Source: a plasmid. Taken from it: a stretch of DNA of 64,000 bases. Shown here one piece after another: positions 6,208 through 61,200 of the stretch. Within the stretch, counting starts at the first letter, position 1. Every line of letters begins with the position of its first letter. Below the pieces are notes generated by a model that did no database searches, was not told where the DNA came from, and saw nothing but the letters and a program-made list of their open reading frames with translations. Both the position numbers and the translations under genes were made by a program. Location: the sequence record CP099787.1. One strand, given 5' to 3'.

Positions 6208-7311
6208 TTAATCTGCACTGATTTTTAATTGTTGCGGATCCGCAACGACCAGGCTTTTGAGCTGATCATTTAATTGTTGTGCCTGTAATTGTGTTTCTTT
6301 TCGCTTCTGAGCTGAAGTTTTGTTGATTGCCATAACTTCTTCAAAAGCAGTTAATGTATCAAGCTGCACCTTCTGAAGTGTCTCAATATCTATAACTTGG
6401 CGGTTGCTTTGTTTTGCAATATGAATTGAAGTTTCTTTAAAATCTTTCGCGCTTTCTAGAAGTGTTTCATTTGTGAAATTATCAATTTCCTCACCTAATT
6501 GTGAGTATTTCTTTTGATCTAAAATATTCAAGGCCAACATTAATTGTCTTTGCCAGGCTGGAATAGTTAAGCCAGATATAGTTTGGAACTTTTCAATTAA
6601 CGCAATATTATTGTTCTGCAAAAAAGTAATCTGAGGCAACGTTTGTAAGGCACTTAATCTCAACAATTCTAGATCCGTAATACGCTTATCTAAACGCTCT
6701 AAGATTTGTGAATATGCATTTGCTCTTTGCTTTGCTAGATCTGTACCTTCACTGTTAAGTGACTCAATCAAGCCAATAAGCTCATTTTTTTTATATCGAC
6801 CAGCTATGACAGCAAAACCTAGTTGAGTATAAACAGAAATTGTATGCTCAAATAATTTCGTCAAGCTATCATTATTTAATTGCAACCCTTTTTGAGCTTC
6901 TGCTACTTGCAATAAATTATCATTTAATTGTGATTCTACTGTCTTAAATTTAGTAATAAGCCTGTCTTTTGAATTACCAATTTTTGCTAACAGCCCCCCT
7001 ATCAACGGTATATTTGATTTATCACTACCAATGGAAAAGTCTGTTCTTTTTAATTTTACAGTAATATCCGTCATTAATTCTCCCATAACTCCCAACTGAT
7101 CATTAGTAACTAATGACAGCATTTGGTTAGAAAGATCAGCTAACGAATCACGGTTATTAGCCCCCAACTCAAGTACCTTTTGTGGGTTCTTAATTAGATC
7201 TAAGTTTTCAACTATTGCTAAAACTTCATCTTTTCTATCAATATCAAGATCAAGTTTTTCCATTTCATTTTCAATTGAAAATACTTGTGTTGTTAATTCA
7301 TTATTTAGCAT
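6208..7311 (-). CDS. TelA/KlaB-like toxic-anion-resistance family protein (tentative)
   Basis: Size (~367 aa) and coiled-coil-rich composition recalling the TelA family; the 16-bp palindrome lies in-frame at its 3' end (VADPQQ). Confidence 0.4.
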   Translation of the reverse strand: MLNNELTTQVFSIENEMEKLDLDIDRKDEVLAIVENLDLIKNPQKVLELGANNRDSLADLSNQMLSLVTNDQLGVMGELMTDITVKLKRTDFSIGSDKSNIPLIGGLLAKIGNSKDRLITKFKTVESQLNDNLLQVAEAQKGLQLNNDSLTKLFEHTISVYTQLGFAVIAGRYKKNELIGLIESLNSEGTDLAKQRANAYSQILERLDKRITDLELLRLSALQTLPQITFLQNNNIALIEKFQTISGLTIPAWQRQLMLALNILDQKKYSQLGEEIDNFTNETLLESAKDFKETSIHIAKQSNRQVIDIETLQKVQLDTLTAFEEVMAINKTSAQKRKETQLQAQQLNDQLKSLVVADPQQLKISAD

Positions 7312-7346
7312 TTTAAAACTCCTTAAGTCTTACGACTCGCAATTAC

Positions 7347-7625
7347 TCACCAGTTTATTAACTGAAGAAAAAGATTAAACGTTGTAAAGAGAACCATTGC
7401 AATGGTAGAAATTAGAAGAAGCAAAGAGATTGTACTATCATCATCATCACCATAAATCAAAGATATAAAATAAAGTCCAAAGCTAAGTATTATTAGAATA
7501 ATATTTCTAAATACTACTTCGTCCCATATATACCTAATGAAAAATATTAAAGCAGCGTATGCAAGTAGGACGATTAAAACTCCGATCGAGAACCGAAGGA
7601 TTTTGGCAAGTTTTTTCATAAACAC
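7347..7625 (-). CDS. small membrane protein
   Basis: Two TM helices; UTR hairpin plus SD upstream. Confidence 0.45.
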   Translation of the reverse strand: MFMKKLAKILRFSIGVLIVLLAYAALIFFIRYIWDEVVFRNIILIILSFGLYFISLIYGDDDDSTISLLLLISTIAMVLFTTFNLFLQLINW

Positions 7626-7657
7626 CTCAAGCTTTGCAGCTCTACTTTCAACATATT

Positions 7658-7891
7658 TTATTTAACCGGATATACGGGTAATTGTCCTTTTTCACAGCTA
7701 TAGGATCTTCGCTCTTTTACCTCTGAACCAAACTTAACGCTAATAATTTCGTTACCAGCATCATGTTTTAAACGCTTAAGTACTTCTTTTTTACACTCTT
7801 GTTCTGATTGGAACGGTATCGTATAAACAGCATGTTTATTCGGAGAGAAAATATTAATAACCAAGAACCAGGCACTAACCCATTTAACCAT
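7658..7891 (-). CDS. small hypothetical protein
   Basis: ORF track only. Confidence 0.3.
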   Translation of the reverse strand: MVKWVSAWFLVINIFSPNKHAVYTIPFQSEQECKKEVLKRLKHDAGNEIISVKFGSEVKERRSYSCEKGQLPVYPVK

Positions 7892-7905
7892 TTTTTAATC
7901 ACTAC

Positions 7906-9135
7906 TTATAAAGATGACCAATAAACCAACTGCCCAGGTACTTCTTTCTTTTTCCAAAATAAGTTGTCCGGCAAGTACTCTTCACTTAAATAACAAACTG
8001 CGTAAAGTATTTCTGCATAGCAGTGAAGTTTTGTTTCACTTCTTGAATAAGCTGAGAATGTAGGTGTATTTAATAGTGCATAACCGTTTGAAGTAACGGT
8101 ATATTTATGTCTACTATCAACTATGTTTGTTCCATACAATTGCATTGCATAATCTAAAGTATCTGGTTGAAATACAGGAAAACCGGATACATAACGGTTT
8201 CTTAAATCGTCATCTACTGTTTTTGGATCCGCCTCATATAACCAATAGGTATTTTCTGGTACAAAATCACAAATTGATTTCTGATAAACAAGTCCAGTTG
8301 CAATGCGTATATCTTCATTAAGTATATAATTTCGTACTTGATTGGCAGCACTTGGACTCTCACAGCTAATAATTAAATGTAGAGCTAATTTTCCATTGCT
8401 CTGATCAACTTGGCCGACACCTACGTTTGTACGTGTTCTTGGATATTTAATTACTTTCTCACGCACTGAGACATTTTGATTTTTTTCAGTACCAGAAATT
8501 CCAATCGCAAAATCAACTTTTTGGCCTGTCTTTAATTCAACATAATTAAAGAAGCTCGCAATAGATGTGACACTTGGTAAACCTGTTGCTATTAAATTAC
8601 TGCTTAAATTAGCATCATCAATAAAAACAGTTAAACAAAACTCATCATCAGGTAGTTTTGATTTACTAAATTCAATAGGTCTTAAAGTAATTTCAGGTGT
8701 ATTAAAGCTATTAATTTTTCCCTGTGAAATCTCAATTAACTCATTGTAATCAGAAAAGGATCTTTCTCGATCTTCAACTGTTACTTCTAAAAGTGCATTC
8801 CCATAGTCTTTATTTCTCTTATTAAGCTCATAGTAAATCCCAATTGCTGGCATCGGTGTGATTGCAACCGGCCCTAAGTCTTTAAGTGGAATTGAAACCT
8901 GCTTAACTTTAGAATCAACTAGATCAGGAATACCCTTAAACGTTGCACAATTTAATTCCTTAAAACAATTTTTACGCAAGCTTACAGTTTTAGAGCTTAT
9001 ATAGTTTAACGGTATATCAAATTGGATTTCTGCATAGATTGGACTATGCATAGACTTCTTATGGAACAAAGCTGGTGAGTGTGTAGCCTGTTTTGCTGTA
9101 GCAAGGAATTCTTCAGTATTAAAATTAATATTCAT
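7906..9135 (-). CDS. hypothetical protein (409 aa)
   Basis: Long ORF; SD GAGGA; preceded by a 17-codon uORF. Confidence 0.5.
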   Translation of the reverse strand: MNINFNTEEFLATAKQATHSPALFHKKSMHSPIYAEIQFDIPLNYISSKTVSLRKNCFKELNCATFKGIPDLVDSKVKQVSIPLKDLGPVAITPMPAIGIYYELNKRNKDYGNALLEVTVEDRERSFSDYNELIEISQGKINSFNTPEITLRPIEFSKSKLPDDEFCLTVFIDDANLSSNLIATGLPSVTSIASFFNYVELKTGQKVDFAIGISGTEKNQNVSVREKVIKYPRTRTNVGVGQVDQSNGKLALHLIISCESPSAANQVRNYILNEDIRIATGLVYQKSICDFVPENTYWLYEADPKTVDDDLRNRYVSGFPVFQPDTLDYAMQLYGTNIVDSRHKYTVTSNGYALLNTPTFSAYSRSETKLHCYAEILYAVCYLSEEYLPDNLFWKKKEVPGQLVYWSSL

Positions 9136-9136
9136 T

Positions 9137-9190
9137 TTAATCCTCGCTTTTAAATGTAATTAAACACATGTTGCAAGCTAACGATTTCAT
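9137..9190 (-). CDS. 17-codon upstream ORF (MKSLACNMCLITFKSED); its stop overlaps the SD of the downstream gene
   Basis: Carries the conserved UTR hairpin plus SD itself; stop TAA sits within GAGGATTAAAATG of the 7906-9135 gene. Confidence 0.35.
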   Translation of the reverse strand: MKSLACNMCLITFKSED

Positions 9191-9270
9191 AGTTTCTCCT
9201 TAAGCTCTTCAGCTCTATAGCTTTTTGAATTATTAAATAAACAAGGAGGTCGCCCCCCTTGTTAGTTGTT

Positions 9271-10527
9271 TTAAATAAGGTCTTGTTGATTTAAAATAAC
9301 TTGCATACGAGAGTCTTCAACATTAGAAGATGGAACAAATACATGTAATTGCGCCATAGAATCTAAAATAGTCGCCAACTCATTAACTAGTACTGGATAT
9401 TGAATTAAGCTTTTCCACGAAAACAAATTAGCTGTATTTTCATCATTAAAGCTTCTTAAAAAGCCACAAGCTACTGATACTAAGTCTTCATCTTCGCTTT
9501 CTGTTAAATCTAAAATACTGACGTAACTTTCCAAAATACCATTAAAATAAGCTGTCTCAAGCTCTGAAAATGCCTTTTCATTTGCTTGTTTTACAATCTC
9601 TTTTGTTTGCTTTTGAGTAGTAGTCGTAAAAGATTTTTCATCTTTCACTGCTTCAGTATTTTCAACCGATTCTTGAACTTTTGCAGGTTGCTGTAAAGTC
9701 TCTTTAGTTTCGGTAATGAGCTCTTGAGTATTGTCCACTTTACTATCTTCATCTTTTTCACCAGCCTTTGGCGAATTCTGAAGTTCTAAAGATGACTGTG
9801 TTACCTCTGAAGTGCTTGAGGTAATAATTTCACCCTTCAGCTCTTTAGACCATACACGGGCTAATTTTGATGAAATAGCACCTTCATGATCTGCTACTAA
9901 CGCTTTTACTTCTTCTGGATACTCAGCTAATAAGTTTTTAATGATCGTGCCAGTTTCAGCATCATTTACCATTTTATTAGCCATAAGGCTTTTTAGATAA
10001 TCATCTGATTCAAGCAATTGTAATCTTCGAGAAACCCATGTCTTTGACTTATTAATTTCATTAGCTAAATCGTCATAACTATACTTTGGATTCTCTGCCA
10101 CGCCTTCTTCTAGCATCAATTTTAAATTCGTAGCAACTTCAAGCAAACTCATGTCTTTTCTAAATAAGTTTTCTGACATTTTTACTCGGCGTGAACCAAG
10201 TTTGTTATCAATCGTTGCTTCGATAGTATCCAAGTTCAAATGTTTATGAGCTAAATAACGATAATGGCCCATATTAATAATATATTCACCAGGATTATCA
10301 GAATCGGCTCTAACTGAAATAGGCTGAAGTAAACCATCTCTCAAAATAGTATTTGCCAGTTCTTTTACATAATCTTGATCATATTCAAGACGTACATTCT
10401 GAGGATCCAACTTAACCCGATTAAGCGGCAATTTTAGAATTGTGCGGTCAGAGTTATTGTTAGCATTTAAGTTTGCTGAAGTTAATGAGCTATCAACAGC
10501 GTTTAAATCACCTAATAAAGAAGACAT
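9271..10527 (-). CDS. parB: ParB/KorB-like partition and regulatory protein
   Basis: ParB N-terminal domain motifs (LQPISVR, GHYRYLA); long acidic C-terminal half as in KorB; directly downstream of parA. Confidence 0.8.
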   Translation of the reverse strand: MSSLLGDLNAVDSSLTSANLNANNNSDRTILKLPLNRVKLDPQNVRLEYDQDYVKELANTILRDGLLQPISVRADSDNPGEYIINMGHYRYLAHKHLNLDTIEATIDNKLGSRRVKMSENLFRKDMSLLEVATNLKLMLEEGVAENPKYSYDDLANEINKSKTWVSRRLQLLESDDYLKSLMANKMVNDAETGTIIKNLLAEYPEEVKALVADHEGAISSKLARVWSKELKGEIITSSTSEVTQSSLELQNSPKAGEKDEDSKVDNTQELITETKETLQQPAKVQESVENTEAVKDEKSFTTTTQKQTKEIVKQANEKAFSELETAYFNGILESYVSILDLTESEDEDLVSVACGFLRSFNDENTANLFSWKSLIQYPVLVNELATILDSMAQLHVFVPSSNVEDSRMQVILNQQDLI

Positions 10528-10530
10528 AGC

Positions 10531-11304
10531 TTAAACCCCCATTTTCTCTAAAACTAATTGATTAATTTTTTTGATTTTTCGCCCTACATCTTTTGCTGAC
10601 GTTTTATCAATTTTCCATACTGGAACTTGTTGTTCACTTGCATCAGCAATTGCAGATCGATTAGGTATGAAAGCAGTCTTATCAAGCATTAAATGACTCA
10701 GTTGTTTCTGCAATTCATTTAAAGTTGTTTTTTGAGTAACAGAGTTAGCACTAACCATATTTGGAAGCAGCCCTAGAAACTGAATTTTTGGGTTTACTTC
10801 TTTAATTTCTTGTGTGGTATCAATAATACCTCTTAGCCCTAGAATTGAATATTTATCCAATAAAAAAGGAGATAGAGCAAATTCAGAAACTAACAAAGGT
10901 AATCGCTGAAACGGGCCGTCTGTAGGAGGTGTATCAAAAATACAGATATCAAAAAATTCGTTAGCCTTAGCAATATTTGATTTGAAATTACGTTGGTATT
11001 CTTCAACTTTATCTAGCTTAAACTCTTGTTCTGTAGGATCAAAAAGTGATTTTAAACTCTTATTACCTTTAAAAAGAACAAAATATTTATCTAAAGTTTC
11101 AAAGTTTTGGATATCCGTAAATAGACTATGGGTATCTTTAATCTCAACCGCAACTTTACTAAGTGAGAAACCACTATTACCTTGTTTATCCATGTCTACA
11201 AATAGAACACGCATACCGCGCTCATAACAGTAATGTGCCAAATGAACAGCAACAGAGGTTTTGCCAATCCCACCCTTTTCGTTAGTGATTACGATTTTTT
11301 TCAT
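10531..11304 (-). CDS. parA: ParA partition ATPase
   Basis: Deviant Walker A KGGIGKTS; 257 aa. Confidence 0.85.
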   Translation of the reverse strand: MKKIVITNEKGGIGKTSVAVHLAHYCYERGMRVLFVDMDKQGNSGFSLSKVAVEIKDTHSLFTDIQNFETLDKYFVLFKGNKSLKSLFDPTEQEFKLDKVEEYQRNFKSNIAKANEFFDICIFDTPPTDGPFQRLPLLVSEFALSPFLLDKYSILGLRGIIDTTQEIKEVNPKIQFLGLLPNMVSANSVTQKTTLNELQKQLSHLMLDKTAFIPNRSAIADASEQQVPVWKIDKTSAKDVGRKIKKINQLVLEKMGV

Positions 11305-11360
11305 TGTTCTTTACTCCAAGCATTTCTGCTCAATTTTGAAATCAGCCTATCCGATTTCTG

Positions 11361-11400
11361 AATAAATTATACTACTAAAACATACTTTTTTGCAAGAAAA
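11361..11400 (-). promoter_or_regulatory. parAB promoter: -35 TTGCAA, 18-bp spacer, -10 TATAAT
   Basis: Read on the minus strand; the 24-bp palindrome lies about 40 bp upstream. Confidence 0.5.
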
Positions 11401-11435
11401 AGATTAAATTTTATAGCGCCAATTTGTCTTAAATA

Positions 11436-11459
11436 GGTTGTTGCGGATCCGCAACAACC
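11436..11459. repeat. 24-bp perfect palindrome GGTTGTTGCGGATCCGCAACAACC (candidate ParB/KorB operator or parS)
   Basis: Seen directly in sequence; intergenic, upstream of parA. Confidence 0.9.
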
Positions 11460-11496
11460 TAAGCTTGTGTAAGTTACATCTATGCATATAAAAAAA

Positions 11497-12274
11497 TCAA
11501 TCATTAATTAAAATGAAATTAGGCACATAATCTTCAGCTTTATGTACAATTTCCTTTAATTTTTGACTATGCAATTTTATGTCCCACCCTTTTACGTAAT
11601 ACATTAAGCTACACCAGCATTCACGATACTTTAACTTGAGGGTATCACCAACAAAAATACGGCAAGGCACTGCCCACAAACTTAGTTGTATATAACACAT
11701 TAAAGCAACGTTTCTATCAATGTCTGCTGCCTCAATATACAAGTGATCTTGCACTTGTATCTTAGATTCCAAACAGAGTTTTACAGTTGAAAGTAAAGTT
11801 GAGCCAGCTCCACAAGCTGGATCGGAAATCGAAATCACCCCCTCTTCCTCAAGTTGGTTTTTTAAGGTCGGTCATTACAACTTGAGCACATAAATTTGAT
11901 ACCTCACTTGGTGTAAAATATTGGCCGATATGATCATTCCCAATTTCTAATTCCATGTAAATGCTACCTAACACATCATATGGCTCACCCTTTGCTTCGC
12001 ATAAATCCACCAACAGATAAAACAATTTTTTTATTTTTAAACGTCCACTAACGTCGTAACGATTGATACGTTGAAGATATTCATTTTCAATATTGTGGTT
12101 AAACAAATTTTGATATCTATGACCAATTGAGTTTCTTAATGCTGCTGCTGAACAAAAAACAAAGTCATGAAATATTTCATAAATGTTTTTAGATTGGTCG
12201 ATACTTTTTAAGGTATGTATAAACTCACTTTTCAAAACACTATAAGTTTTACCAATGTTAACTTTTGAATTCAC
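11497..12274 (-). pseudogene. N6-adenine DNA methyltransferase remnant (HsdM/gamma-class), frameshifted and 3'-truncated
   Basis: GQYFTPSEV (motif X) and DPACGAGSTLL (motif I) in two ORFs split at a C5 run around 11836-11840; ends after GDTL with no NPPF/NPPY motif. Confidence 0.55.
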
Positions 12275-12800: not shown

Positions 12801-12963
12801 TTTTTCACCATAAGCTTTTCAGCTCAAAATACGAAATCAGCCTATCCGATTTCTAACCCCAAAATTGTAATACAATGATGTATTTTAATCAAGATCTTTA
12901 AACGTTAATATTGTTAAAAAACATTAATTTAATGAAATATATTTTCGAATTAAACATTACTAA

Positions 12964-13142
12964 CAGAGCAACGTGTCCACGTTGCGAACTGAAGGAATTT
13001 GCGAGCATCTCCCTACTTGATTACCGTTTCAAACTTCGAGCGAGTCAGTCAAAATCTGTGATTTTGACTAGACGACCGAAGAAGTGAAACTTCTCCCATT
13101 GGAGCTTATCCGGGAGTAACAAAGCAATCCCGCAGGGTTGCG
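12964..13142 (-). repeat. Repeat copy B of the ~180-bp structured leader element
   Basis: About 95% identical to copies A and C over the core. Confidence 0.85.
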
Positions 13143-13282
13143 CTTCTAAATTGCGAATCTAATTGATTTTAGGTTCATCCACTCTAGTTAATTAATGGAA
13201 CTGACAGCATTTTTTAATATTCTAGTGTGTTAGGGATAGATATACTTACCTACACCTACTTTAAAAATCACATAACACATGT

Positions 13283-14075: not shown

Positions 14076-14328
14076 TTCTGCTCGAATCTCAATTGTTTTA
14101 GCCTTTTATAATTTTTAATCTGAACCGCATCCCTCTTTATTAAAGGCCCCCATAGGTAGCTCCCAGTTTTTTGTAAATATAGGCAAGGTATATTCTTTTC
14201 TCATTGCCTGATCCAAAGCTACTAAATCATTGATATTAAAAGGCTGAATACCCTCACTTATATTTATGACATTGATTTTTTTTCGACTAATTGTAGTTGC
14301 AAATTGTTCTTCGTATTTAAAAATTCGA

Positions 14329-15207
14329 TCAATACGATTGGGAAAATAATGTTTGATGGTTTGCCCAAACTTTCGGGCTATTATAGATACAAGTCATACA
14401 GCTTGATCTCGACCATCCTAAGCGATATGGTACTGGCGCTGCGACATTATGACGCTCTAAAATTTCCCACACTTGACGTTCTGTAAAATCAAGAACTGGT
14501 CGATATGCATCAATTAGACGACCTTTTTTCCCATTACGATTATCACAAAAATGTGTTTCTAATTGGAAGTATTTTGCTCGATTAGGACTTTCTTCTCGAC
14601 GCTCTCCAGTAACAAATAAAACTTTAGAGTTATTAAAACGCTCCTGGTTTGATAAAGCTCTACGCCCTACCTCGATCTTCAGAGCTGAAGAACACCATCT
14701 AATACGGAGATCTGCTGATTGTTGAGGAAACCGCAATCTCGTTCCAGCTTTTGCTCGTTTTCTTGGAATAATGATATTCCCACTCGGTGTTTCAATCTCA
14801 TATTCATGGCTTATGGAATTATTTTTTAGCATCTCCCCCTCGAAGCCATGCATTAACCAGCTATTATAAATTGGTAAATTAAATGCTTTGGCAAGCTGTT
14901 TGTTGTAGCTATCCATAAACAGCCAATCCATAAACGGCTCACTCTTACCGTCAACAAGGTTATGCCACAATTCAACCTTTGACATGTCCACGCCTTTCTC
15001 TATTAAATAGAGCAAAGAAGCAATACTATCTTTTCCGCCACTCATACTGACGATAATTAAATCATAAATATCTAAATCTATTTCTGAGACAGAGAACAAC
15101 TTACCTTCAGATGCAAGTGCCTGTCCTATAGCATTTTTTAATACATTAGGAATAACATTCACATCATCATGTCTATCAAGCTCTTTATATAAAGCATTAT
15201 TTTTCAT
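14329..15207 (-). CDS. PAPS reductase family (PP-loop) protein
   Basis: SGGKDS P-loop and ERREES motif. Confidence 0.7.
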   Translation of the reverse strand: MKNNALYKELDRHDDVNVIPNVLKNAIGQALASEGKLFSVSEIDLDIYDLIIVSMSGGKDSIASLLYLIEKGVDMSKVELWHNLVDGKSEPFMDWLFMDSYNKQLAKAFNLPIYNSWLMHGFEGEMLKNNSISHEYEIETPSGNIIIPRKRAKAGTRLRFPQQSADLRIRWCSSALKIEVGRRALSNQERFNNSKVLFVTGERREESPNRAKYFQLETHFCDNRNGKKGRLIDAYRPVLDFTERQVWEILERHNVAAPVPYRLGWSRSSCMTCIYNSPKVWANHQTLFSQSY

Positions 15208-15357
15208 TCAATTCACCTTAAGCTTTTCAGCTCATATATAGAAACCAGCCTACCCGATTTCACCCCTCAATTATACTACATTTTCATGTCTTTTTATTAA
15301 GAAAAAACATATATTTAGTGTAATTTTTCGTTTTATAAAATACTTTTGCAGAGCAAC

Positions 15358-15527
15358 GTGTCCACGTTGCGAACTGATGAAATTTGCGAGCATCCCCCTC
15401 CTTGATTACCGTTTCAAACTTCGAGCGAGTCAGTCAAAATCTGTGATTTTGACTAGACGACCGAAGAAGTGAAACTTCTCCCATTGGACCTTATCCGGTA
15501 ATAACAAAGCAATCCCGCAGGGTTGCG
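15358..15527 (-). repeat. Repeat copy C of the ~180-bp structured leader element; extended homology with copy A spans about 15213-15600
   Basis: Near-identical to 924-1102. Confidence 0.85.
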
Positions 15528-15719
15528 ACAAATAGCCCTCTAAATCGCTCTATTTGCTCCTAGATTCAATTTTATAGAAACAAGGTAGCCTAACTACCAA
15601 AGAAATAAAACATGGCTAGAATTAACAAATATGATCAAAAACAAAATTAAACTTGTAATATTTTTTGTATATAAATTAAATAAATCACATATAATAAATT
15701 ACTGAAAGGAGGATTTGTT

Positions 15720-18376: not shown

Positions 18377-18392
18377 GTTGCGGATCCGCAAC
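18377..18392. repeat. 16-bp palindrome GTTGCGGATCCGCAAC (18 bp with flanks)
   Basis: Intergenic between hns and the nuclease gene. Confidence 0.9.
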
Positions 18393-20796: not shown

Positions 20797-20812
20797 GTTG
20801 CGGATCCGCAAC
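20797..20812. repeat. 16-bp palindrome (20 bp with flanks CTGTTGCGGATCCGCAACAG)
   Basis: Intergenic. Confidence 0.9.
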
Positions 20813-21246: not shown

Positions 21247-21771
21247 TTATTTAGTAGAAAGTTTTTCAAGACACTTTTTTGCCTCTTCTAATAGACGAGT
21301 ATCAATTTCTCTTTTATGTGTAAGCATTCTTCTGAGATTTTGAGGATTCGCGTTCAAGAGATCTGCATATATACTACTTGTAAGCTCTTCACCATTCTGA
21401 GCTTCATAAAGTTTTTTTGTTTTTTCATATATTTGCTTTAGATGGATAGCATTAATAAAGTCCTTTCTTTCTTGAACAACCCCTCTCTCAATATAATTCC
21501 AATCAAAATAATTTTTTTCAAAATCTTTATTTTTTGCTTTGGACTCAAGACGTTTAAGTCTATTTTGAATTTCGGGAACAGCTACTTGACTCAAAATAGT
21601 GAAGACCTGACTATTATGATAATCAGGGTCCTCCATCACGACTTTATTTAGAAAATCATCACCGATTTTCTGAAGCTCTGGATATTGGGGAGAATTTTTT
21701 GGTACACAAGTTTCGAGAAATACATCATATAACCCCTTAACTTGTCCGATTTGTATCGAATAACTGCTCAT
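21247..21771 (-). CDS. hypothetical protein
   Basis: ORF track. Confidence 0.35.
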   Translation of the reverse strand: MSSYSIQIGQVKGLYDVFLETCVPKNSPQYPELQKIGDDFLNKVVMEDPDYHNSQVFTILSQVAVPEIQNRLKRLESKAKNKDFEKNYFDWNYIERGVVQERKDFINAIHLKQIYEKTKKLYEAQNGEELTSSIYADLLNANPQNLRRMLTHKREIDTRLLEEAKKCLEKLSTK

Positions 21772-23002
21772 TTGGTTTTAAATTGTCCTCTAAAATTTCT
21801 GAATCTGTAGTTAATAATCCAAGTTTTGGAAGATCAGGCATCGCCATTTCAGCCTCCCATATCCAACCTTCATATTCACTAGCTTCAATCAAATTAACTA
21901 CACTTTCTTTATACGTGTGAGATTGTGCTGCCGGAATGATATACATTGCCGTAGGAACAGGCAAAGTATCAAGAGCCACTAAACTCGACAACGGTTTTTT
22001 TCTATCCAGATTGTAACGCAACCCTTTAATAAAAGGTCTATTTTCTCTGATCATTTCATTTATAAGATCATATTCATACATATTCTCATAAGGAATCCAC
22101 TGTTCATTTACAACAATTAAACTAACTTCTTCTAAATTAGCTACACCAGAAATTCCTCTAGTAAAAGTTGAGATAGTAATTAATTGAGAGTTTTCGTGAG
22201 CACCCCAAAGCTCTAAGTCCTCTTGGAACCGTTTAAATATTCTTTTATGTAGATCCTTATTCATAAAAAAATGGAAATCTGGACAATGCTTTATAACCAT
22301 TTTGAAATCGTATCTGGCTTCTGAAATTTCTTTAACTATTCCTATTAAAATCATGAGGTTTTGTGATGCTTTGCCCGTATTCATATGGGCCATTTTTTCA
22401 TTTCTTCTTGCTATTATTTCTTTTTTCTTCTGATCATTATATGTTTCAGGAATATAGAGATTATCGGTTAATGAAGCTCTTTTGGCGATTTTAGAATCAC
22501 TAGCATTAAGCAGTGCTTTTCTTACTGTATACCAATTTCTCTTCGGAATGTCTGGATTGAAATAATTTAACTTAGCTTCTTCAAAAAGATAATGAAGTAA
22601 TCCACGTAATGTAAGTTTTTTTCCATCAGTTCTTACCGAGTCACTATCTGCTCCAGAAGGGGCTGGCGGAGCTTTACCTGGCATTTTAGTTAAACTGAAA
22701 TCTAATTTTAAATTTGTAGTACCATCTTCAGGATTTTCTTGTATTGCCTGTCCTTGTACCTCTCCAAGCCCGGAAAGTTCTTCAGGAGGCTCAAAACTTA
22801 AACAGACTGGTGAATGTCTTCCACCTGTTTTAGGCATTCTTTTTAGAATATAACTTTCATTTATTTTTGCTATGTACATTTCAACACCATTATTAGTACA
22901 TAAACAAAGTGGACGTTTCCGCTTCTCATAGTATTGTTTTAATAATGATTGTAGTCCTTCAAAATCACTACTAATTACATCTTCACCAAATAATAGTTTC
23001 AT
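21737..23002 (-). CDS. large conserved hypothetical protein with an N-terminal CxC...C cysteine cluster
   Basis: 421 aa; PLCLCTNNG...SPVCLSF; common ICE/plasmid-type hypothetical. Confidence 0.45.
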   Translation of the reverse strand: MKLLFGEDVISSDFEGLQSLLKQYYEKRKRPLCLCTNNGVEMYIAKINESYILKRMPKTGGRHSPVCLSFEPPEELSGLGEVQGQAIQENPEDGTTNLKLDFSLTKMPGKAPPAPSGADSDSVRTDGKKLTLRGLLHYLFEEAKLNYFNPDIPKRNWYTVRKALLNASDSKIAKRASLTDNLYIPETYNDQKKKEIIARRNEKMAHMNTGKASQNLMILIGIVKEISEARYDFKMVIKHCPDFHFFMNKDLHKRIFKRFQEDLELWGAHENSQLITISTFTRGISGVANLEEVSLIVVNEQWIPYENMYEYDLINEMIRENRPFIKGLRYNLDRKKPLSSLVALDTLPVPTAMYIIPAAQSHTYKESVVNLIEASEYEGWIWEAEMAMPDLPKLGLLTTDSEILEDNLKPNEQLFDTNRTS

Positions 23003-23017: not shown

Positions 23018-23869
23018 TTATCTGTCTAGTTCTACGCCAACATCATGTTGTAAGCTTTGTTCTTGAGTAATATGAAAATCTTGTATTTCCTTTTCATTCA
23101 TTAATTGCGGTATATCCCCAGCATGATTAATAAATAACTCTCGTCCACGATAAAAGTTATTGTCTTTTTCGAGTTGATCCTTTAATTGATCTTTACTGTA
23201 TTTTATTCCAACCAAGTTATTGATTTTGAGTGTAAAATCCCTTTCAGACTCATCCGTCACGATACCATGTACTACATCTCTAAATGAACCAGGATCTTTA
23301 ATAATCTTTGGTGGGTCTAAATTTATTTCTAAGTTCTTTTCTGATTTCCCGTTTATATTTTTATTTTGGTTTTCACGTGGATTAATTGTTAGATGAGCAT
23401 TTTCAATTTCTTTTAATTGTTGTTGCGTCAGCAAATTATAATCAGCCTCCGTTTTAGATAAAGTTTTATTCGTTTCTTGATTATAGATATTTAAACCAGC
23501 TTTTTTTTGGTTCCATACCCCTTCATCATTACGCATGTTTGAGTAAATTTCTTTACCAACACGATCATAAACTTTAAAACTATCCACAACTTTTGAATTT
23601 TCTAATTCTTCTATTGCTCTTAAAGTTTCAGGATGTGTATTTTTATCTAAAGAGTTTTCATTAGGGGGGAATGAAGATACTGCTCTGATTTCAATCGTAT
23701 AATTTTTACTCTTAAGCGATTCAGTAATATCATTTAAAACATTTTCATTTTTAAATTCATGATTTAAAAGCAAATTATATTTTTCATTACTAATAGTAGA
23801 AATCAATTGATGAATTGAATGGTCTTTATCTTGTTGCGGATCCGCAACTTTAAAAAATTGATTGGTCAA
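23018..23869 (-). CDS. hypothetical protein; its 5' end overlaps the next ORF exactly at the 16-bp palindrome (possibly one gene with 23850-24101)
   Basis: Overlap 23850-23869; palindrome 23833-23848 encodes VADPQQ. Confidence 0.4.
   Translation of the reverse strand: MTNQFFKVADPQQDKDHSIHQLISTISNEKYNLLLNHEFKNENVLNDITESLKSKNYTIEIRAVSSFPPNENSLDKNTHPETLRAIEELENSKVVDSFKVYDRVGKEIYSNMRNDEGVWNQKKAGLNIYNQETNKTLSKTEADYNLLTQQQLKEIENAHLTINPRENQNKNINGKSEKNLEINLDPPKIIKDPGSFRDVVHGIVTDESERDFTLKINNLVGIKYSKDQLKDQLEKDNNFYRGRELFINHAGDIPQLMNEKEIQDFHITQEQSLQHDVGVELDR
23833..23848. repeat. 16-bp palindrome inside coding sequence
   Basis: Seen directly. Confidence 0.9.
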
Positions 23870-28027: not shown

Positions 28028-29053
28028 CTAAGACTTATAAAAATCACTTTTGCATTTACTGGTCGACCTAATATTATCTGCCCAATTTATTAATTCGTTA
28101 TTCGATCTTGGTTTTGGCAATGTCTGAGCAATATTCAACCAACAACTTGTTGAATGCCCTTCATCGTCTTTTGTATTTTTTGCTCTTAATTTACTCCAAT
28201 TATTAACAGCTTGGTCTGCAATGCTAGGATGATTTACATACAGATAACCCGCCATATAAAGATCCGCAAAAACTTCTTTCCACAATGTAGAGGCGCTACC
28301 AAGCTCTTGGTAACTCATTAGATCTTTTACGTGGGATCTAAATTTTGGTGCTATAGCGTTTGTACCTAAAATTGTTGTCTTATCTGAATTTGCTGCATTT
28401 ATATTGAATGTTAAATAATCTCTCTTAATATCAATACAATGTGCAAACTCATGCATCATTATTGCCATCTTTGGAATATCAAGTCTTTCCTTTGCAAGCT
28501 TATCTTTTGATATATTTTTTATCATTTCTTGCTTCATATCTTGGCTCGAAACATCAGAATAATTTAATGCACAATATCCGTTCATTAAATACATTGATGC
28601 GCCTGATGCATCTGGTACAACTACTAATCTTGTTAGAGCCCAACTTGTCCTTGTATTTCCAAGTTTAATATATACATCATTTTCATGACCAAGCTTTTGA
28701 ATAATTCCGAATTCTTTACTCTTAGCATCTTGTTCATTTGTTTTTGTAAACTTTTGCTGATCTCTAATTGAGTACAAATGAAGAAATGTTCCTGAAGTGC
28801 CTACAATAACTAAAAAAATCAATGATAGAGCACCATATACAAGTTTTATATCCCATCCTTTCAATACTTCTGAAAAATTTTTCCAAATAAAATACAATAT
28901 ATAAGCTACTGATATTATGGCTATACAAACATTTAACCCCAAAAAATTATTATTAGGTTGTATATAAAAATTCAGAATGACAATAAATATTGATGATATT
29001 ACTAATCCAATTTGTGCTAGAAATAGCAGGATCATATGCGAAATTGACTTCAT
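28028..29053 (-). CDS. membrane-anchored HExxH zinc-metallopeptidase-like protein, paralogue 1
   Basis: HEFAHC motif; NGYCALN and DDEGHSTSCW blocks shared with 31336-32328; 3 N-terminal TM helices. Confidence 0.55.
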   Translation of the reverse strand: MKSISHMILLFLAQIGLVISSIFIVILNFYIQPNNNFLGLNVCIAIISVAYILYFIWKNFSEVLKGWDIKLVYGALSLIFLVIVGTSGTFLHLYSIRDQQKFTKTNEQDAKSKEFGIIQKLGHENDVYIKLGNTRTSWALTRLVVVPDASGASMYLMNGYCALNYSDVSSQDMKQEMIKNISKDKLAKERLDIPKMAIMMHEFAHCIDIKRDYLTFNINAANSDKTTILGTNAIAPKFRSHVKDLMSYQELGSASTLWKEVFADLYMAGYLYVNHPSIADQAVNNWSKLRAKNTKDDEGHSTSCWLNIAQTLPKPRSNNELINWADNIRSTSKCKSDFYKS

Positions 29054-29578: not shown

Positions 29579-29863
29579 ATGAAAACCAAAGAAATTATCC
29601 AAATGCCACTGAAATTGATCTCATCAAGTAAAAAAGATGATGTATACGAAAATATTGAAGCTCTTGTATTGAGCATAAAGAAAGATGGCTTTTTACTCCC
29701 TATCAGCGTGCGAATGAATCCCGATAAAACAGGAGAATTCATTGTTAATCTTGGGGAAAACCGATTTAGGGCAGCGCTAGCACTTGGTTTAAATACTATT
29801 CCTGTTTATATTGAGGAAGCTCCAAAAATTTCTATTGATTTCCTGTTTACGAGTCCAGAATAA
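29579..29863 (+). CDS. small ParB-N-terminal-domain-like protein
   Basis: LGENRFRAA motif resembling the ParB GxxRxxA box. Confidence 0.4.
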   Translation: MKTKEIIQMPLKLISSSKKDDVYENIEALVLSIKKDGFLLPISVRMNPDKTGEFIVNLGENRFRAALALGLNTIPVYIEEAPKISIDFLFTSPE

Positions 29864-31291: not shown

Positions 31292-31307
31292 TTTGCGGAT
31301 CCGCAAC
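31292..31307. repeat. Near-palindrome TTTGCGGATCCGCAAC (1 mismatch) in the divergent umuC / metallopeptidase-2 intergenic region
   Basis: Seen in sequence. Confidence 0.8.
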
Positions 31308-37430: not shown

Positions 37431-37760
37431 TTAAGATACTTGAATTGGTTTATCGCAATTCTCATCAGAGGTTTTAGTACCACTTAATTCTGGTTTTTTA
37501 AGTTTTCTGCTCCTTTCGTTTAATGAACTAGAATGTAAATGTTGCGGATCCGCAATCTTAGTTTTACTAGATGTTAATTCTTTATGTTCATTACAAAAAC
37601 GGCCAGATTCAACTTTGATTAATCTATTTTTCTGAAGTGAATGAGCTGTTTCTCTTTCACTATTAATCTTCAAAAAAACATCTTGCATTGAGTTTGAGCC
37701 AGCGAACATAGGGCCAGAACAAATCAAAGATAAGGAAATTACTATTAATTTTGCTTTCAT
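37431..37760 (-). CDS. small secreted protein; palindrome variant inside
   Basis: Signal peptide; GTTGCGGATCCGCAAT at 37541-37556. Confidence 0.35.
   Translation of the reverse strand: MKAKLIVISLSLICSGPMFAGSNSMQDVFLKINSERETAHSLQKNRLIKVESGRFCNEHKELTSSKTKIADPQHLHSSSLNERSRKLKKPELSGTKTSDENCDKPIQVS
37541..37556. repeat. Near-palindrome GTTGCGGATCCGCAAT
   Basis: Seen in sequence. Confidence 0.8.
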
Positions 37761-46719: not shown

Positions 46720-47364
46720 TCACTGTCTAGTAAACTTAGAGATATCGACATTCAAGTCTTTTATTTCAGTATTTATTCCATTCAAAATTTCTTTACTATT
46801 TGGCTGGCTATTAACTGAAGCATTTACTGGTATAGGACCATCTGAACCTGTTTTAGTAGATTGCGGATCCGCAACTGTAATGGCTGGACTTGAATAGTTT
46901 GAAATTGGGGCTCCAATTGGTGCGTATGCATCTTGTAGACGTCGAGAATTGTGTTCAATCATCCACTTCCAATTGTCGATTACTAGATAGAAATATTGTT
47001 GATCGAATAAAGTTCTATCCGAAGATTCCCACGGAGCTACCCAAATTCTGAGAGTTTTCGGTTGGCGTAGTAATGGTTCATCTGCGTATGGAGCTACTGG
47101 CATTGCATTATCTTTAGTCGCACGTGTACGCTGCATATATGTATTTGCAATTACTTCTTTACTATTGCCATGTTTAACCTGCTGTGACGGCAAATTGTTT
47201 GCATTCAAATTCGCCATTACACCTGACATTGAGTCACACAAAATTCCATCTGGCGCTTTGCATGAAAATGAGCTTTGACCATTTAAACCGTCGAACCCTC
47301 CGTTAAATGCTGCACATCCACTTAGATTGATTGCCAAGCAAAGTAAAATACCTTTTCTTTTCAT
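46720..47364 (-). CDS. traV: TraV-like lipoprotein
   Basis: Lipobox LSGC plus conserved Cys pair; directly upstream of traC. Confidence 0.5.
   Translation of the reverse strand: MKRKGILLCLAINLSGCAAFNGGFDGLNGQSSFSCKAPDGILCDSMSGVMANLNANNLPSQQVKHGNSKEVIANTYMQRTRATKDNAMPVAPYADEPLLRQPKTLRIWVAPWESSDRTLFDQQYFYLVIDNWKWMIEHNSRRLQDAYAPIGAPISNYSSPAITVADPQSTKTGSDGPIPVNASVNSQPNSKEILNGINTEIKDLNVDISKFTRQ
46860..46875. repeat. Near-palindrome ATTGCGGATCCGCAAC inside CDS (VADPQS)
   Basis: Seen in sequence. Confidence 0.8.
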
Positions 47365-51724: not shown

Positions 51725-51961
51725 TTATTTGGCTACTGCCAAATGCTTTTCACTGCGCTCTTGTTGAACGCAACTTTTATTTTCTGGATCACATAGAACA
51801 AATTTTGATTCTCTGCCTTCACCCTTTTGAAGAACATTCACATATCGGGTGATAGGGTTAGGTTCATTCATACTCTGCTGTTTTGTTTCATTTTTTTGTT
51901 CTTTTGCTACTGCTAAGGTTGCGGATCCGCAACATAGTAGAAGCAAAAAAAATCTATTCAT
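51725..51961 (-). CDS. small secreted protein; perfect palindrome encodes part of its signal peptide (CCGSATLA)
   Basis: Signal peptide; palindrome at 51918-51933. Confidence 0.4.
   Translation of the reverse strand: MNRFFLLLLCCGSATLAVAKEQKNETKQQSMNEPNPITRYVNVLQKGEGRESKFVLCDPENKSCVQQERSEKHLAVAK
51918..51933. repeat. 16-bp perfect palindrome
   Basis: Seen in sequence. Confidence 0.9.
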
Positions 51962-53640: not shown

Positions 53641-53670
53641 AATTGTTGTTGCGGATCCGCAACAACAATT
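53641..53670. repeat. 30-bp perfect palindrome AATTGTTGTTGCGGATCCGCAACAACAATT between convergent genes
   Basis: Seen in sequence. Confidence 0.9.
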
Positions 53671-56559: not shown

Positions 56560-56742
56560 GTGAATTATATGCATCTTAGATTTAATGAACTTACAACTGT
56601 TTTATGTATTGCCTCCAATGCGATTATAATTCTTGGAATCCTTATCATAAGAAAAGGACGACATATTGGTATTGGTCAAGCATTTATTTTCACTGGACTT
56701 ATCCTTAATACAAATTGCTTTGTTTTTGCTTTAAAGCCCTAA
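56560..56742 (+). CDS. small membrane protein; start likely about 56569
   Basis: UTR hairpin GAGCUGAAGAGCUUAAGGUG. Confidence 0.35.
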   Translation: MNYMHLRFNELTTVLCIASNAIIILGILIIRKGRHIGIGQAFIFTGLILNTNCFVFALKP

Positions 56743-57341: not shown

Positions 57342-57357
57342 TTTTCCTTTCAAATAA

Positions 57358-57705
57358 TTGATTGCTTGGAGATTTAATATGCCTAATTTTATTTTTAACC
57401 CTGAAACTTTTGTGACACCAGGCCACGGCTCTGATCCCGGTGAGTGGAATGATGATGATCGAAAGGACATTACAACTCTTAGATATCTTTATCCTGAGAT
57501 AGCACATTGGGGCGATTTAGCTATAGGTTCTGCATTTGGCTCTTATTCTTTCGATATTCTTGAAGTTCAATGGGCTGAATGGATGATTAAGCGCGATGAT
57601 AGCTTTCTTAATTATTGTTGCTGGCGTCAATTGTATGGTGAGTGGCAATTCCATTTAGATATTGACAAAGTAGACCAAGAAGCCTCGCATTTATGGAAAA
57701 TTTAA
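57358..57705 (+). CDS. hypothetical protein
   Basis: ORF track. Confidence 0.35.
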   Translation: MIAWRFNMPNFIFNPETFVTPGHGSDPGEWNDDDRKDITTLRYLYPEIAHWGDLAIGSAFGSYSFDILEVQWAEWMIKRDDSFLNYCCWRQLYGEWQFHLDIDKVDQEASHLWKI

Positions 57706-57736
57706 TTTTTCTTTATGTAAGCTTTCCGAAATAAAT

Positions 57737-57760
57737 AAAAAGCCCTTATGGGCTTTTTTT
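57737..57760. terminator. Bidirectional terminator AAAAGCCCTTATGGGCTTTTTTT
   Basis: Seen in sequence. Confidence 0.65.
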
Positions 57761-58184
57761 AAAGTTCAATATTCTCTATTTCATCAATGCTTTGTTTAAG
57801 CTCTGGCAATGTTTCAAAATCACCATTCTTTAAGAAGTAATAGACCGCAGCATTAGTAAAACTCGATAGTGTTTCACCCTTTTTCTGTACTGCTGTTTCC
57901 CGGATTCTTTTAGCTATTTCTACTTCAATTCTTATTACAGTTCTTGAGCCTTTAATCATCTTATAAGCTGGTTGTAATTTTCTAACTTCAGCAGTAATTT
58001 TCTCATTATTTACTGTATCCTCTAAGATCTTTCCAAGCACGTAATTAAAGGGTAATTTTTTCAACTTTTGATAGTTACCTAATATCATTTTCAAAGTTGG
58101 GCTTAGTAGGACCTGAAATGGTTCTCTTTCATCATACACACGTTTTGAAACATTGTGCATTACTGCATTACTCGTTACCACCAT
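57759..58184 (-). CDS. hypothetical protein downstream of the relaxase
   Basis: ORF track. Confidence 0.35.
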   Translation of the reverse strand: MVVTSNAVMHNVSKRVYDEREPFQVLLSPTLKMILGNYQKLKKLPFNYVLGKILEDTVNNEKITAEVRKLQPAYKMIKGSRTVIRIEVEIAKRIRETAVQKKGETLSSFTNAAVYYFLKNGDFETLPELKQSIDEIENIEL

Positions 58185-58274
58185 TATCCCCTTTACCTTT
58201 ACCGATAACTACATTAGGCTTAATTTAATATAGCATTTATAAACCATATACCACAATTTCATAATACTCTGTTC

Positions 58275-61200
58275 CTATCTTTCTAGCTCATTAGTTACAC
58301 CAATTTTTTCATTTTCGATGATATGTTCTGGTACTTTTTGACCAACTTCTTTAACTGTATCCAAATAACTTGTTTTATCTTGTTTAAACGTAATTGCTTC
58401 TCGTGTCATTTGTTTATTATCAGTGTAAATCTGCAAATTATGCTCTTCCCTCGTTACAGCAACATAAAATGATCTTGTTCCAAATGTATTACCTAAAACT
58501 TTGGTGGCAGCCTTATCACTTTTCAGATCATTTGCTAATTTTTGGCTATTTAGTAACAAAAATACATTACCCTGTGTTAAGCCCTGAGAGGAATAAACAG
58601 TACTACTATAGCCGTAATCAAAATGTTTAAACCCACTTCTTGATAGGCTTTTCTCTTTCCCATCCTGGCCTTCTACTATTACTTTATCTTCATGAATATC
58701 CTTGATTTTATATCTTTCACCATTCTTGATCTGTTCATCATCTTTTGTCCGGGTAATTCTTATTACATCTCCCTTAGCTATCTTTCTTTGTTCTGATTTA
58801 TATACTTCTACACTTCCTTTTTTAGGGTTCCATTTAATTTTATTTTTATCCTTATCAATTAATACCAATTTACCTTCTTTGTCTTTCATCATTACTTTTA
58901 GATAGTCACCTTTTTCAATTTTGATTCCTGTGTCTTTATCTGTAAATGATTTCCCAAAACGTATCGTCATATTAGGCTCATAATTATTAATATGTTTACG
59001 CTCCGCTTCAGTGAAATTGGTATTTACTAAGATCTCAAAATTATGATCATTATGATCTAATTCATTTAGTTTTTTCATTTCGCTTCTTACAAGTGAGTTC
59101 AGCATTACTCTATCTGAGTTAAAGGGAGTAATGATAAGGCTATTATCTCTTGATTCCTTATTAAGCCTCATATAATCACCAACTAATTTTTGATGTACTT
59201 CATGAATTTCCTGAAATAAGTCATGCTGCTCATGTAGAGCTGGTTGTGTACCCTTTGCAGCTACAACTACTTCATGAATCCTTTGCTGTTTATCAAGTAA
59301 ATCAAAAGCTTTATCGTTGTTACTTAAATCAATTTTACCTTCTTTGTTTTTTGCAACGACAACAGAAACCACGTCTTTAAGTTCCTGGTTTTTTTGACGG
59401 ATAATGTCATGCATTTGTGAAGTTTTTAGCACACCTCTATTTTGTACAAGTTCAAAATGGTTTTCCTGCACTAATTGACTGAAGCTGCAATTTATCCCCT
59501 AAAAAAACAACACGACTATTAGCTTGCTTAGCCAAAGTCAAAATGTCTTTGAAGTTTGTCTGGCTTACAAATGAAGATTCATCAACTATCCAGATTTCAT
59601 TTTTACGGTTTACTCCCCCATTCTTTTCAATTTCTTTCTGAAGCTCATTTTCTTTAATCTGAAACATGGCCATTGTTTTTGAGGGTATACCAGTTTCCAA
59701 TTCTAAGTTTTTAGCAGCTACGCCAGTGGCGGCCATACCTTTAACAATAAAACCGTTTTCTGAGGCTACTTTATTCAAAGTATGCAGCATTGTAGTTTTA
59801 CCCGTACCAGCTAAACCGTCTACGCCTATATATCTACTTTCAGAACTAAATATTGTTTCAAGACTTGCTCTTTGTCCGGGTGTAAACTTCCTCCCTCTCA
59901 ACTGTTCCTCTTGATCGAGTCTTGTTTTAACTTGAGATTCATCCACTATTGGACTCACGCTTTTTTGTTCATTTTGTATATGTTGTAACGACCAAACTTC
60001 GCTATGTGCCAAACGCTGAGTTGTTAACTTCCCATCTACCCGGACGATGATTTTTTCTTTTTCTAGTCTATTTAACTCAGCTCGTACTTGTTCATGAGTT
60101 ACTTCTTGTATGTCAAATTTCATAGCCGTATTTAGTATCTTTGTTTCAGGTATCATCATTTCTCTTTCGGTGTGATGCCCTATAGCGTAGTAAACGGCTT
60201 CTTTTGTTTTTTGGCTTATGAGTACTTGTTGAGATTCACGATTCTTTCTTTGATAAGGTCGTTCTCTAGGTACAGTCTGGTCTTTTGAATTGTTACTCGC
60301 TTTAGGTTCAGTTTGTTTCTTACCCAATCTAACTTCATCTTGAATATGCGCTTCTTGGCCCATATTTTGCGTTTCTGGCTCTTTTTGGGATTTTCCTGAT
60401 ACTTGACTAGCTTTTTCATTTGATATGGCGCTATCGCTCGGATTTTGCGTTTCAGAGTTGTCAATTCGTTTATCTGGTGCTTCTTTATCAGCGTTATTAG
60501 ATTTATCGCTAGAAACTTCCGTTTTCCCTTCAAATGATATATTCGGATCATTTTTTGAGGATCCGGTTTTCCATATGTCTTTTTGGTTTTTTTCTGAAGG
60601 TTGCGGATCCGCATTCATCTGATTCGTTTTAATTTTATCTTCTAGCTTATCTACAAAACTTTGTGTAATGCCAAGTTCACTTGCACGTTCCTTCCAAACT
60701 TGACGTAATTCAGCCTCATTAAATGCCTGTTTCCTTTCCCGTGTTTTTAAAGCTGCTTGTTCTCTCAAACTAGCAGGTGCATCTTCAATATCAATTCCTC
60801 TACTTTTTAAACTTTCAATAATCTGAGTTCTTCGCTGAGAAAACTCTTGTATCATTTCTGGAGTAAAGCCGGCAATTTCAAAATTGCCCTGATTATCTTT
60901 TACCTCTACATCAAGACCTATAGCTCTTAAATTTTGAGCGAGATTAGAATTATATATCGAACCTATGGTTGCCTGATTATCATAAATTACTTCGTTACTT
61001 AATGCCGTCCATGAATCTTTATCATTTAAAGTCATGTTCATAACAACTGCATGTGTATGAGTTTGCGGATCCAATGCTCTACTAGTATTGTGATTAAAAA
61101 GAGCAACAACTAAATTATCACTCTCTGATTTTTGAATTGTGCCATCAACACTGATTCTAGTTTGCGTGTAATGATCTTCAATAGCGGAAATAGTATCTTT

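Follow-up and report, generated by a model that had tools for sequence, protein, structure and literature searches.

A dispersed 16-bp palindrome as the probable combined parS and operator of a KorB-like ParB on RepAci6-type plasmids of Acinetobacter baumannii

In the KorB/IncC system of the IncP-1 plasmids RK2 and RP4, a protein with a ParB_N domain and a KorB-type helix-turn-helix (HTH) is encoded beside a small ParA, and ∼10-13 palindromic operators (OB, TTTAGCSGCTAAA) are dispersed over a conjugative plasmid of ∼60-70 kb, near to and far from promoters, upstream of the system's own operon and in some cases inside genes. We find the same organization in a 64,000-bp stretch of plasmid DNA (sequence record CP099787.1; hereafter the window), where a 16-bp palindrome, GTTGCGGATCCGCAAC, is dispersed around a parAB operon that encodes a KorB-like ParB. 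The likeness does not extend to the site, which is unrelated to OB: the window contains no TTTAGCSGCTAAA even at one mismatch, which excludes the IncP-1 KorAB regulon proper, and it contains neither a canonical parS nor a tandem-repeat centromere array. Also unlike IncP, no KorA or TrbA partner was identified here, and the backbone is of the MPF_F/MOBF type. Chromosomal ParB-parS systems (TGTTNCACGTGAAACA) provide a second parallel: a perfect palindrome of 16-18 bp with outer bases (T)GTT...AAC(A), several dispersed copies as in multi-parS replicons, some of them in genes, and a protein with a ParB/Srx N-domain. In contrast with chromosomal parS, the inner bases differ, the sites are distributed over the whole replicon rather than clustered near the origin, and the DNA-binding domain is nearest to that of KorB. 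A third parallel, by functional analogy only, is with VirB-virS and BisD, in which proteins of the ParB fold load at specific sites and influence transcription from a distance; the plasmid studied here is AT-rich, encodes H-NS and has a site 30 bp upstream of hns. VirB and BisD differ in having no ParA partner or partition role, and there is no evidence of anti-silencing here.

The window is part of a ∼72.3-kb plasmid like p1_LZFZ3604, is typed MPF_F/MOBF, and is 99.6-99.9% identical to RepAci6-type conjugative plasmids of A. baumannii. Plasmids of this type (pACICU2, pAb-G7-2, p1AB5075 and relatives) are major carriers of carbapenem and amikacin resistance in this species. The G+C content of the window is ∼33%, and annotated genes cover 89.3% of it, leaving 10.7% non-coding. 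The full circle was rebuilt by adding the remaining 8,278 bp (∼8.3 kb) that lie outside the window. The window holds 11 sites, seven perfect, three with one mismatch and one with two mismatches (Table 1), where 100 shuffles give an expectation of 0.01; the initial annotation had placed the ten perfect and one-mismatch copies at these same coordinates and had put the chance expectation near zero. It had also named four half-sites, and those at 28261 and 44115 (GATCCGCAA) and at 61063 (TTGCGGATC) stand, whereas the one at 60600 is in fact a full two-mismatch site, GTTGCGGATCCGCATT; a decayed full site with four mismatches lies at 44109. The extended perfect palindromes that it described around intergenic copies are real at 18377 (18 bp), 20797 (20 bp) and 53648 (30 bp), but the one at 11440 measures 28 bp, not 24. 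Counted over the whole replicon and its relatives, as had been proposed, there are 13 sites on the rebuilt plasmid, eight of them perfect (the part outside the window adds one perfect and one one-mismatch site), and 14 perfect copies on the related plasmid pBJ83, or 18 sites counting up to two mismatches. No other palindrome of at least 10 bp recurs more than three times in the window. Five of the 11 sites are intergenic, compared with the 10.7% of the window that is non-coding (binomial P∼0.004, by our own arithmetic), and two further sites stand at gene edges, one 23 nt ahead of the stop codon of telA and the other 28 nt inside a 78-aa gene; in all, six of the 11 lie inside genes.

We consider that these palindromes are the cognate sites of the plasmid's KorB-like ParB, serving as a combined parS and operator, with a probability of roughly 0.75; that ParB binds them is probable to the same degree. 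The initial annotation had proposed such a KorB-like operator/parS set for the adjacent ParB, and the proposal draws support from the KorB HTH of the protein, from strict co-occurrence, from placement upstream of parA, from a site centre that tracks the lineage, and from the lack of a competing centromere. The comparison with pBJ83 is instructive. This plasmid belongs to another replicon cluster but is syntenic with the window, and its proteins are mostly 40-85% identical (ParB 60%); the 16-mer itself is nevertheless unchanged, and sites occupy counterpart positions upstream of parA (136 bp in both plasmids), upstream of hns, in zeta and in mobF. Assembly contigs with a ParB 60-66% identical also have the 16-mer, unaltered, upstream of parA, and in several it recurs ∼30 bp after parB. 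In every locus for which the region upstream of parA is available, one site lies 80-150 bp upstream of that gene.

The co-occurrence of site and protein holds in metagenomes. We scanned 74 loci (607 kb) that encode ParB/KorB relatives and found the motif in only five (L033, L035, L037, L038 and L039), where ∼0.04 occurrences are expected by chance in 607 kb (our own arithmetic). The ParB match is essentially full-length in four of the five and partial, covering the N-terminal half, in L039. In L035, L037, L038 and L039 the site is an estimated 110-150 bp upstream of parA, which was placed from the coordinates of the ParB match and not from gene calls; in L033 the region upstream of parA is off the contig and a single site lies ∼3 kb downstream of parB. 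None of the ∼65 metagenome loci that encode more distant ParB/KorB proteins contains the motif. A scan of genome contigs with a ParB alignment gave two loci only, and a protein search with a 44%-identical ParB relative gave no further homologues. In viral contigs we obtained 17 motif matches, one per contig and none in a multi-copy array; these look like chance occurrences (their expected number was not calculated). The ParB subfamily is confined to Acinetobacter plasmids, with 236 PLSDB records matching its C-terminal domain.

A sister lineage, represented by pCZH-5-2, pKBN10P02143 and pAS62-4, encodes a ParB that is only ∼30% identical overall. Its sites read GTTGCG-N4-CGCAAC with the centre KTRA/TYAM (consensus TTAA): the arms are the same, and the centre is different and looser. 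There are 12 such sites with exact 6-bp arms in pCZH-5-2, or 13 counting one with the 5-bp arm core only; upstream of parA, at a distance of 82-122 bp, members of this lineage have GTTGCGTTAACGCAAC either perfect or nearly so. The recognition helix is kept, with KSKTWVSRRL in the window and K[TD]KTW[IV]SRHL in the sister lineage; within the shared pattern K-[TS]-W-[VI]-[ST]-R, the next residue is R in the lineage with GATC centres and H in the lineage with TTAA centres. Fixed arms with a lineage-specific centre are the pattern expected of a dimeric HTH protein reading two half-sites. Outside the 16-mer, the flanking base at −1 is T in 58% of half-sites.

The sites inside genes show the level at which the motif is conserved. 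They are read in two frames, giving VADPQ and CGSAT, and in the orthologous signal peptides of traW and the 78-aa gene, CCGSAT changes to CCVTAT or GCVTAT along with the centre of the lineage; at the position orthologous to 51918, pBJ83 has a site, and pCZH-5-2 has one bearing that lineage's own centre. Because two frames are used and the peptide changes with the lineage centre, selection acts on the DNA. Conservation of a DNA motif whose copies within one plasmid evolve in concert points to a plasmid-encoded binder.

Selection on DNA might instead concern a folded structure, and we weighed a role as hairpins in RNA, where they would act as terminators or stabilisers, or as hairpins or cruciforms in DNA, for instance on the single strand moved during transfer. 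The core hairpin is stable (−9.4 kcal/mol for a 20-nt version, −17 to −20 kcal/mol for extended versions), the 20797 site is the top terminator-like match of its region, and some relatives have a T-run after the site that follows parB. Moreover, 10 of 56 exact-arm sites (∼18%) have 5-8 bp of additional symmetry with differing sequences, as if stem length mattered. However, the sequence, including the loop, is invariant in at least 21 copies and over backbones ∼25% diverged, and the arms show no compensatory changes; the centre varies between fixed arms in the pCZH lineage, where site orientation is unrelated to the direction of transcription. Many copies lie within genes, and the extra symmetry is restricted to intergenic copies, where we infer that it may be a by-product of quasipalindrome template switching. 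Rho-independent terminators in particular are rejected: a transcribed-strand T-run is found at 20797 only, that is, at one of the five sites in 5-25 kb, and six of 11 sites are in genes. On balance we regard a structural role as quite unlikely.

A functionless array is more improbable still, and we give little credence to it either as a short mobile or recombination-generated repeat or as the footprint of restriction-modification around GGATCC. The flanks are unrelated between copies, while selection is needed to explain why the sequence is conserved exactly in diverged lineages and why sites inside genes keep their positions. The core does contain BamHI and Dam sites, but conservation extends well beyond 6 bp and the sister lineage is without GGATCC. 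A link with BamHI-type restriction-modification, raised in the initial annotation, did not survive: the conserved stretch spans 16 bp, and GGATCC is not depleted in the window, with 14 copies outside the motif against ∼5 expected by our arithmetic. REP- or MITE-type repeats are rejected as well, as no flanks are shared and the repeat families consist of the 16-mer plus chance similarity only. What speaks for recombination is a ∼380-bp repeat in pBJ83 (L003 26575 and 38235; L003+L004 53742), made of two ∼190-bp modules that are joined exactly at a two-mismatch site variant, GTTGCGGATCCGCACT; one copy of the repeat consists of the right module only and begins at the site. This hints that sites are able to serve as recombination junctions. 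In the window, however, the site at 31292 does not mark an edge of the divergent patch that surrounds it.

The gene parA is directly upstream of parB, and the pair is kept in all related loci. ParB contains a ParB_N domain (PF02195, E 2.4e-11, 43.9 bits, cut-off 26.3) and a KorB HTH domain (PF08535, E 4.8e-10, 39.7 bits, cut-off 22.3). Among solved structures, RK2 KorB (8qa8/8qa9; 8qa8 E 1.1e-13, residues 31-219) is closest to it in both sequence and fold, and the ParB structure model matches the folds of KorB, ParB and Noc; the protein is thus KorB-like, as first annotated. The motif associated with cytidine triphosphate (CTP) deviates from that of KorB: P-motif 2 is GHYRYL in the window lineage, compared with GARRYR in KorB (consensus GERRxR), and ENLFR replaces the ENLQR box, whereas the pCZH lineage has GARRVL and ENIQR. 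The equivalents of KorB R117, which is required for CTP binding, and of N146 are kept, and those of R116 and R119 are lost. The C-terminal domain of KorB is an SH3-like dimerisation domain. In this ParB the KorB C-terminal domain (PF06613) gives no Pfam match; the C-terminal third is conserved within the subfamily, is without a Pfam match, and is predicted to be all-helical over residues 320-400, with a predicted local distance difference test score (pLDDT) of ∼55-84 over most of that span. The model of this helical domain has no match in the PDB. Since the overall model is mediocre (mean pLDDT 58.5), it was used for domain-level statements only.

It is unlikely, in our estimate, that the sites are bound by another trans-acting factor while ParB uses a different, unrecognised centromere. 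Such a binder might be a conserved plasmid protein (DUF1173, the 126-aa or 77-aa hypotheticals, or the resolvase) or a host protein. Several non-ParB proteins are indeed conserved across all lineages, the arms stay unchanged while ParB falls to 30% identity, the parA leader holds a separate conserved inverted repeat, and one of the long-palindrome sites abuts the resolvase gene. Among the named plasmid proteins, however, a DNA-binding domain is recognised in the resolvase only, and an array of 13 res-like sites scattered over the plasmid would be harmful; a host factor would leave unexplained why the centres differ between plasmid lineages of the same genus. ParB is favored as the binder because the site is strictly placed upstream of parA, the motif is confined to loci of this ParB subfamily, the 16-bp palindrome format is typical of parS and OB, and there is no other candidate centromere.

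To quantify how the sites are distributed, we calculated the coefficient of variation (CV) of their spacing. On the rebuilt plasmid the 13 sites are spaced more evenly than random (CV 0.41, P 0.001), with a largest gap of 9.3 kb, and similar values were obtained for the 18 sites of pBJ83 (CV 0.46, P 0.0009) and the 13 of pCZH-5-2 (CV 0.43, P 0.002); as the plasmids are relatives of one another, the three P values are not independent. In contrast, the 10 exact OB matches of RP1 are spaced in a random-like manner (CV 0.79, P 0.38). Along the long tra operon sites recur at intervals of 3-9 kb in each lineage (3-6 kb in the case of pBJ83 and pCZH-5-2), partly in different genes, which suggests that positions turn over while the density of sites is maintained. 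Such regularity suggests that the sites are loading points serving the plasmid in its entirety. A bolder reading, which we hold to be doubtful, is that regularly spaced points (no gap >9.5 kb, density kept by turnover in the tra operon) load a ParB-type clamp that would coat essentially the whole AT-rich plasmid, rather than serving as a local centromere plus a few operators. The ParB responsible, whose CTP motif is deviant and whose helical C-terminal domain is new, would do this for plasmid-wide control (silencing, or counter-silencing against chromosomal or plasmid H-NS) or for compaction.

Promoter prediction around the sites is too noisy in 33%-GC DNA to assign operators, and the parA promoter alone is supported, by phylogenetic footprinting; its TTGCAA-18-TATAAT ranks among the two best matches to the consensus over 20 kb. 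The 11440 site lies upstream and stops 44 bp short of the −35, in agreement with the ∼40 bp given earlier. This distance is at the lower edge of the 'distal' OB class of KorB, which lies 45 bp to >1 kb upstream of promoters (PMC11790492). Other sites end 28-35 bp before the start codons of hns, the gene after telA and the 330-aa gene, where they could overlap core promoters. Two of the contexts described at the outset bear on these genes: the 18377 site does separate the thermonuclease stop from the hns start, and the 31292 site does lie in a divergent intergenic region, with a Y-family polymerase gene (annotated as umuC) on one side, but the 'metallopeptidase' on the other side is unsupported, as the 330-aa product has no Pfam match.

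If ParB is the binder, its dimer would recognise the two GTTGCG arms through the KorB-type HTH, with the central four bases specific to the lineage, and the bound sites would form a partition complex with the small ParA. At the site upstream of parA and at the sites ∼30 bp before the starts of hns, the post-telA gene and the 330-aa gene, ParB would hold transcription down or adjust it, by direct action or by spreading or sliding in the manner of KorB from distal OB sites. We infer ParB binding, CTP-dependent sliding, regulation, and the split between partition and regulation.

Several points weigh against this interpretation. The association of the array with ParB is correlative. The arms are identical even though the ParBs are only 30% identical, so that co-variation is limited to the centre, and the varied extended symmetric flanks at ∼18% of sites go beyond a simple dimer-binding model; the extra symmetry may reflect selection for hairpins or cruciforms at some of the sites, or the mutation of a strong palindrome by template switching. 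The second conserved element in the parA 5′ untranslated region (5′UTR) could be the real autoregulatory operator. As judged from its sequence, the degenerate P-motif 2 makes clamp behavior uncertain, and the C-terminal domain is not KorB-like. Finally, no KorA-like partner was found in a homologue search that was not exhaustive, and parA contains no embedded same-strand open reading frame (ORF) of 60 aa or more.

The array is apparently an unreported addition to the known ParB/KorB site arrays. Four features set it apart from the KorB system: the sites are unrelated in sequence, the C-terminal domain is new, the CTP motif is deviant and the spacing is unusually even. A literature search for the 16-mer or its 12-mer core returned nothing relevant, only BamHI cloning primers; for partition or control sites of RepAci6 plasmids we found no description, and a survey of A. 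baumannii plasmids names no parS. One apparent match for KorB, RepAci6 and Acinetobacter was false, arising from 'Korber' in a reference list. A likely ParB site provides a handle for incompatibility-based curing and stability studies as well as a map of candidate regulated promoters (parAB, hns and others). The two ParB lineages, with the same arms and different centres, form a natural pair suited to studies of specificity, and the even spacing, if selected, bears on the distance that ParB/KorB clamps need to travel.

Table 1. Positions of the palindromic sites, the parAB genes and other sequence elements in the window.
Feature	Coordinates	Strand	Context
Perfect site	6231..6246		within final 40 nt of telA; start codon of next gene 35 bp downstream; frame VADPQ
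Perfect site	11440..11455		core of 28-bp perfect palindrome 11434-11461; ∼135 bp upstream of parA ATG; position kept in all lineages
Perfect site	18377..18392		30 bp upstream of hns start, 19 bp past thermonuclease stop; pBJ83 site at same position
Perfect site	20797..20812		8 bp past a stop codon, 129 bp upstream of next gene
Perfect site	23833..23848		inside zeta-toxin-family gene, 253 nt from start; in pBJ83, 204 nt into zeta
One-mismatch site	31292..31307		divergent intergenic region; 121 bp from Y-family polymerase gene, 28 bp from 330-aa gene
One-mismatch site	37541..37556		inside 109-aa gene, tra operon; frame IADPQ
One-mismatch site	46860..46875		inside traV; frame VADPQ
Perfect site	51918..51933		28 nt into 78-aa gene heading tra operon; frame CCGSAT
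Perfect site	53648..53663		core of 30-bp perfect palindrome 53641-53670; between convergent genes, 5 bp past resolvase stop
Two-mismatch site GTTGCGGATCCGCATT	60600..60615		inside mobF, 936 nt from start; in pBJ83, one-mismatch site 951 nt into mobF
parB	9271..10527	-	418 aa; ParB_N + KorB HTH, variable linker, conserved C-terminal domain; proposed binder
parA	10531..11304	-	257-aa Walker ATPase without N-terminal HTH (IncC2/Soj size)
parA promoter TTGCAA-18-TATAAT	11366..11395	-	phylogenetic footprint, parA upstream regions of five relatives
5′UTR element AATCGGATAGGCTGATTT	11339-11356	-	conserved, downstream of parA promoter
Leader element AATCGGATAGGCTGRTTT	818-835, 11339-11356, 12834-12851, 15242-15259	-	
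GAGCYGAARRGCTTAAGGAG cassette genes, examples	1946, 2550, 3131, 4806, 7621, 9186, 12279, 12796	-	
GAGCYGAARRGCTTAAGGAG cassette genes, further examples	14052, 15212, 16857, 20660, 37393, 37756, 43540, 47621	-	

Two further regulatory elements were noticed. In the window, the leader element AATCGGATAGGCTGRTTT, an inverted repeat AATC-N9-GATT, follows the −10 sequence TAGTATAAT at four operons including parAB, and three of the operons with the element share upstream repeats of 300-370 bp (787-1153, 12803-13193 and 15211-15578), two copies of which are 98% identical; the leader element may serve a second regulator as operator, or act at the RNA level. The sister lineage (pCZH-5-2, L013+L012 20423-34201 and 50043; L031 and L032) has a second dispersed 16-bp palindrome, TATAACCTAGGTTATA, in ∼10 copies, and no counterpart turned up in the window. 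This palindrome occupies the 17-bp spacer between the two elements of a strong, repeated promoter (TTGCAT...TATAAT) from which many small genes are driven, and it looks like the operator of a separate global repressor.

Among the neighboring genes, one of ∼410 aa without a Pfam match (7906-9135, minus strand) follows parB in the RepAci6 and pBJ83 lineages and in metagenomic relatives, the place that KfrA holds after korB in IncP; in relatives, and not in the window, the 16-mer lies 35-60 bp upstream of this gene. The plasmid also encodes a stand-alone 94-aa ParB_N-domain protein (29579-29863, plus strand), a PAPS-reductase-family protein (14115-15207, minus strand) and a DUF1173 protein (21737-23002, minus strand) whose gene adjoins the zeta-toxin-family gene. 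DUF1173, zeta and thermonuclease are conserved in all lineages.

Compared with pXH731 (NZ_CP021322), the window shows 1-bp frameshifts in zeta (23852), in the N6 methylase gene (11497-12274), in mobF (58275-61551), in the PAPS reductase gene and in traN, which are probably homopolymer sequencing errors. The zeta frameshift is a T6 versus T5 difference 3 nt from the 23833 site and may alternatively be read as phase variation next to that site. Between 30900 and 32200, identity to pXH731 is lowered to 88.8-96% in a stretch that takes in the beginning of the Y-family polymerase gene, the 31292 site and the greater part of the 330-aa gene. This segment looks like a recombination patch, and the idea that sites form the borders of such a patch was rejected. 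The segment 61863-64000, comprising most of an ORF for a traD-like type IV coupling protein and the region beyond, has no counterpart in pXH731 and is present in 72-kb relatives; pXH731 appears to be deleted or misassembled there.

Finally, at least 15 genes share a translation-initiation cassette, GAGCYGAARRGCTTAAGGAG-N7-ATG on the coding strand (Table 1), which forms a small hairpin (AGC/GCT stem, GAAA-type loop) immediately 5′ of the Shine-Dalgarno sequence; pCZH-5-2 has an analogous initiation cassette, CCGAAAGGTTAGGAGTA, in 13 copies.

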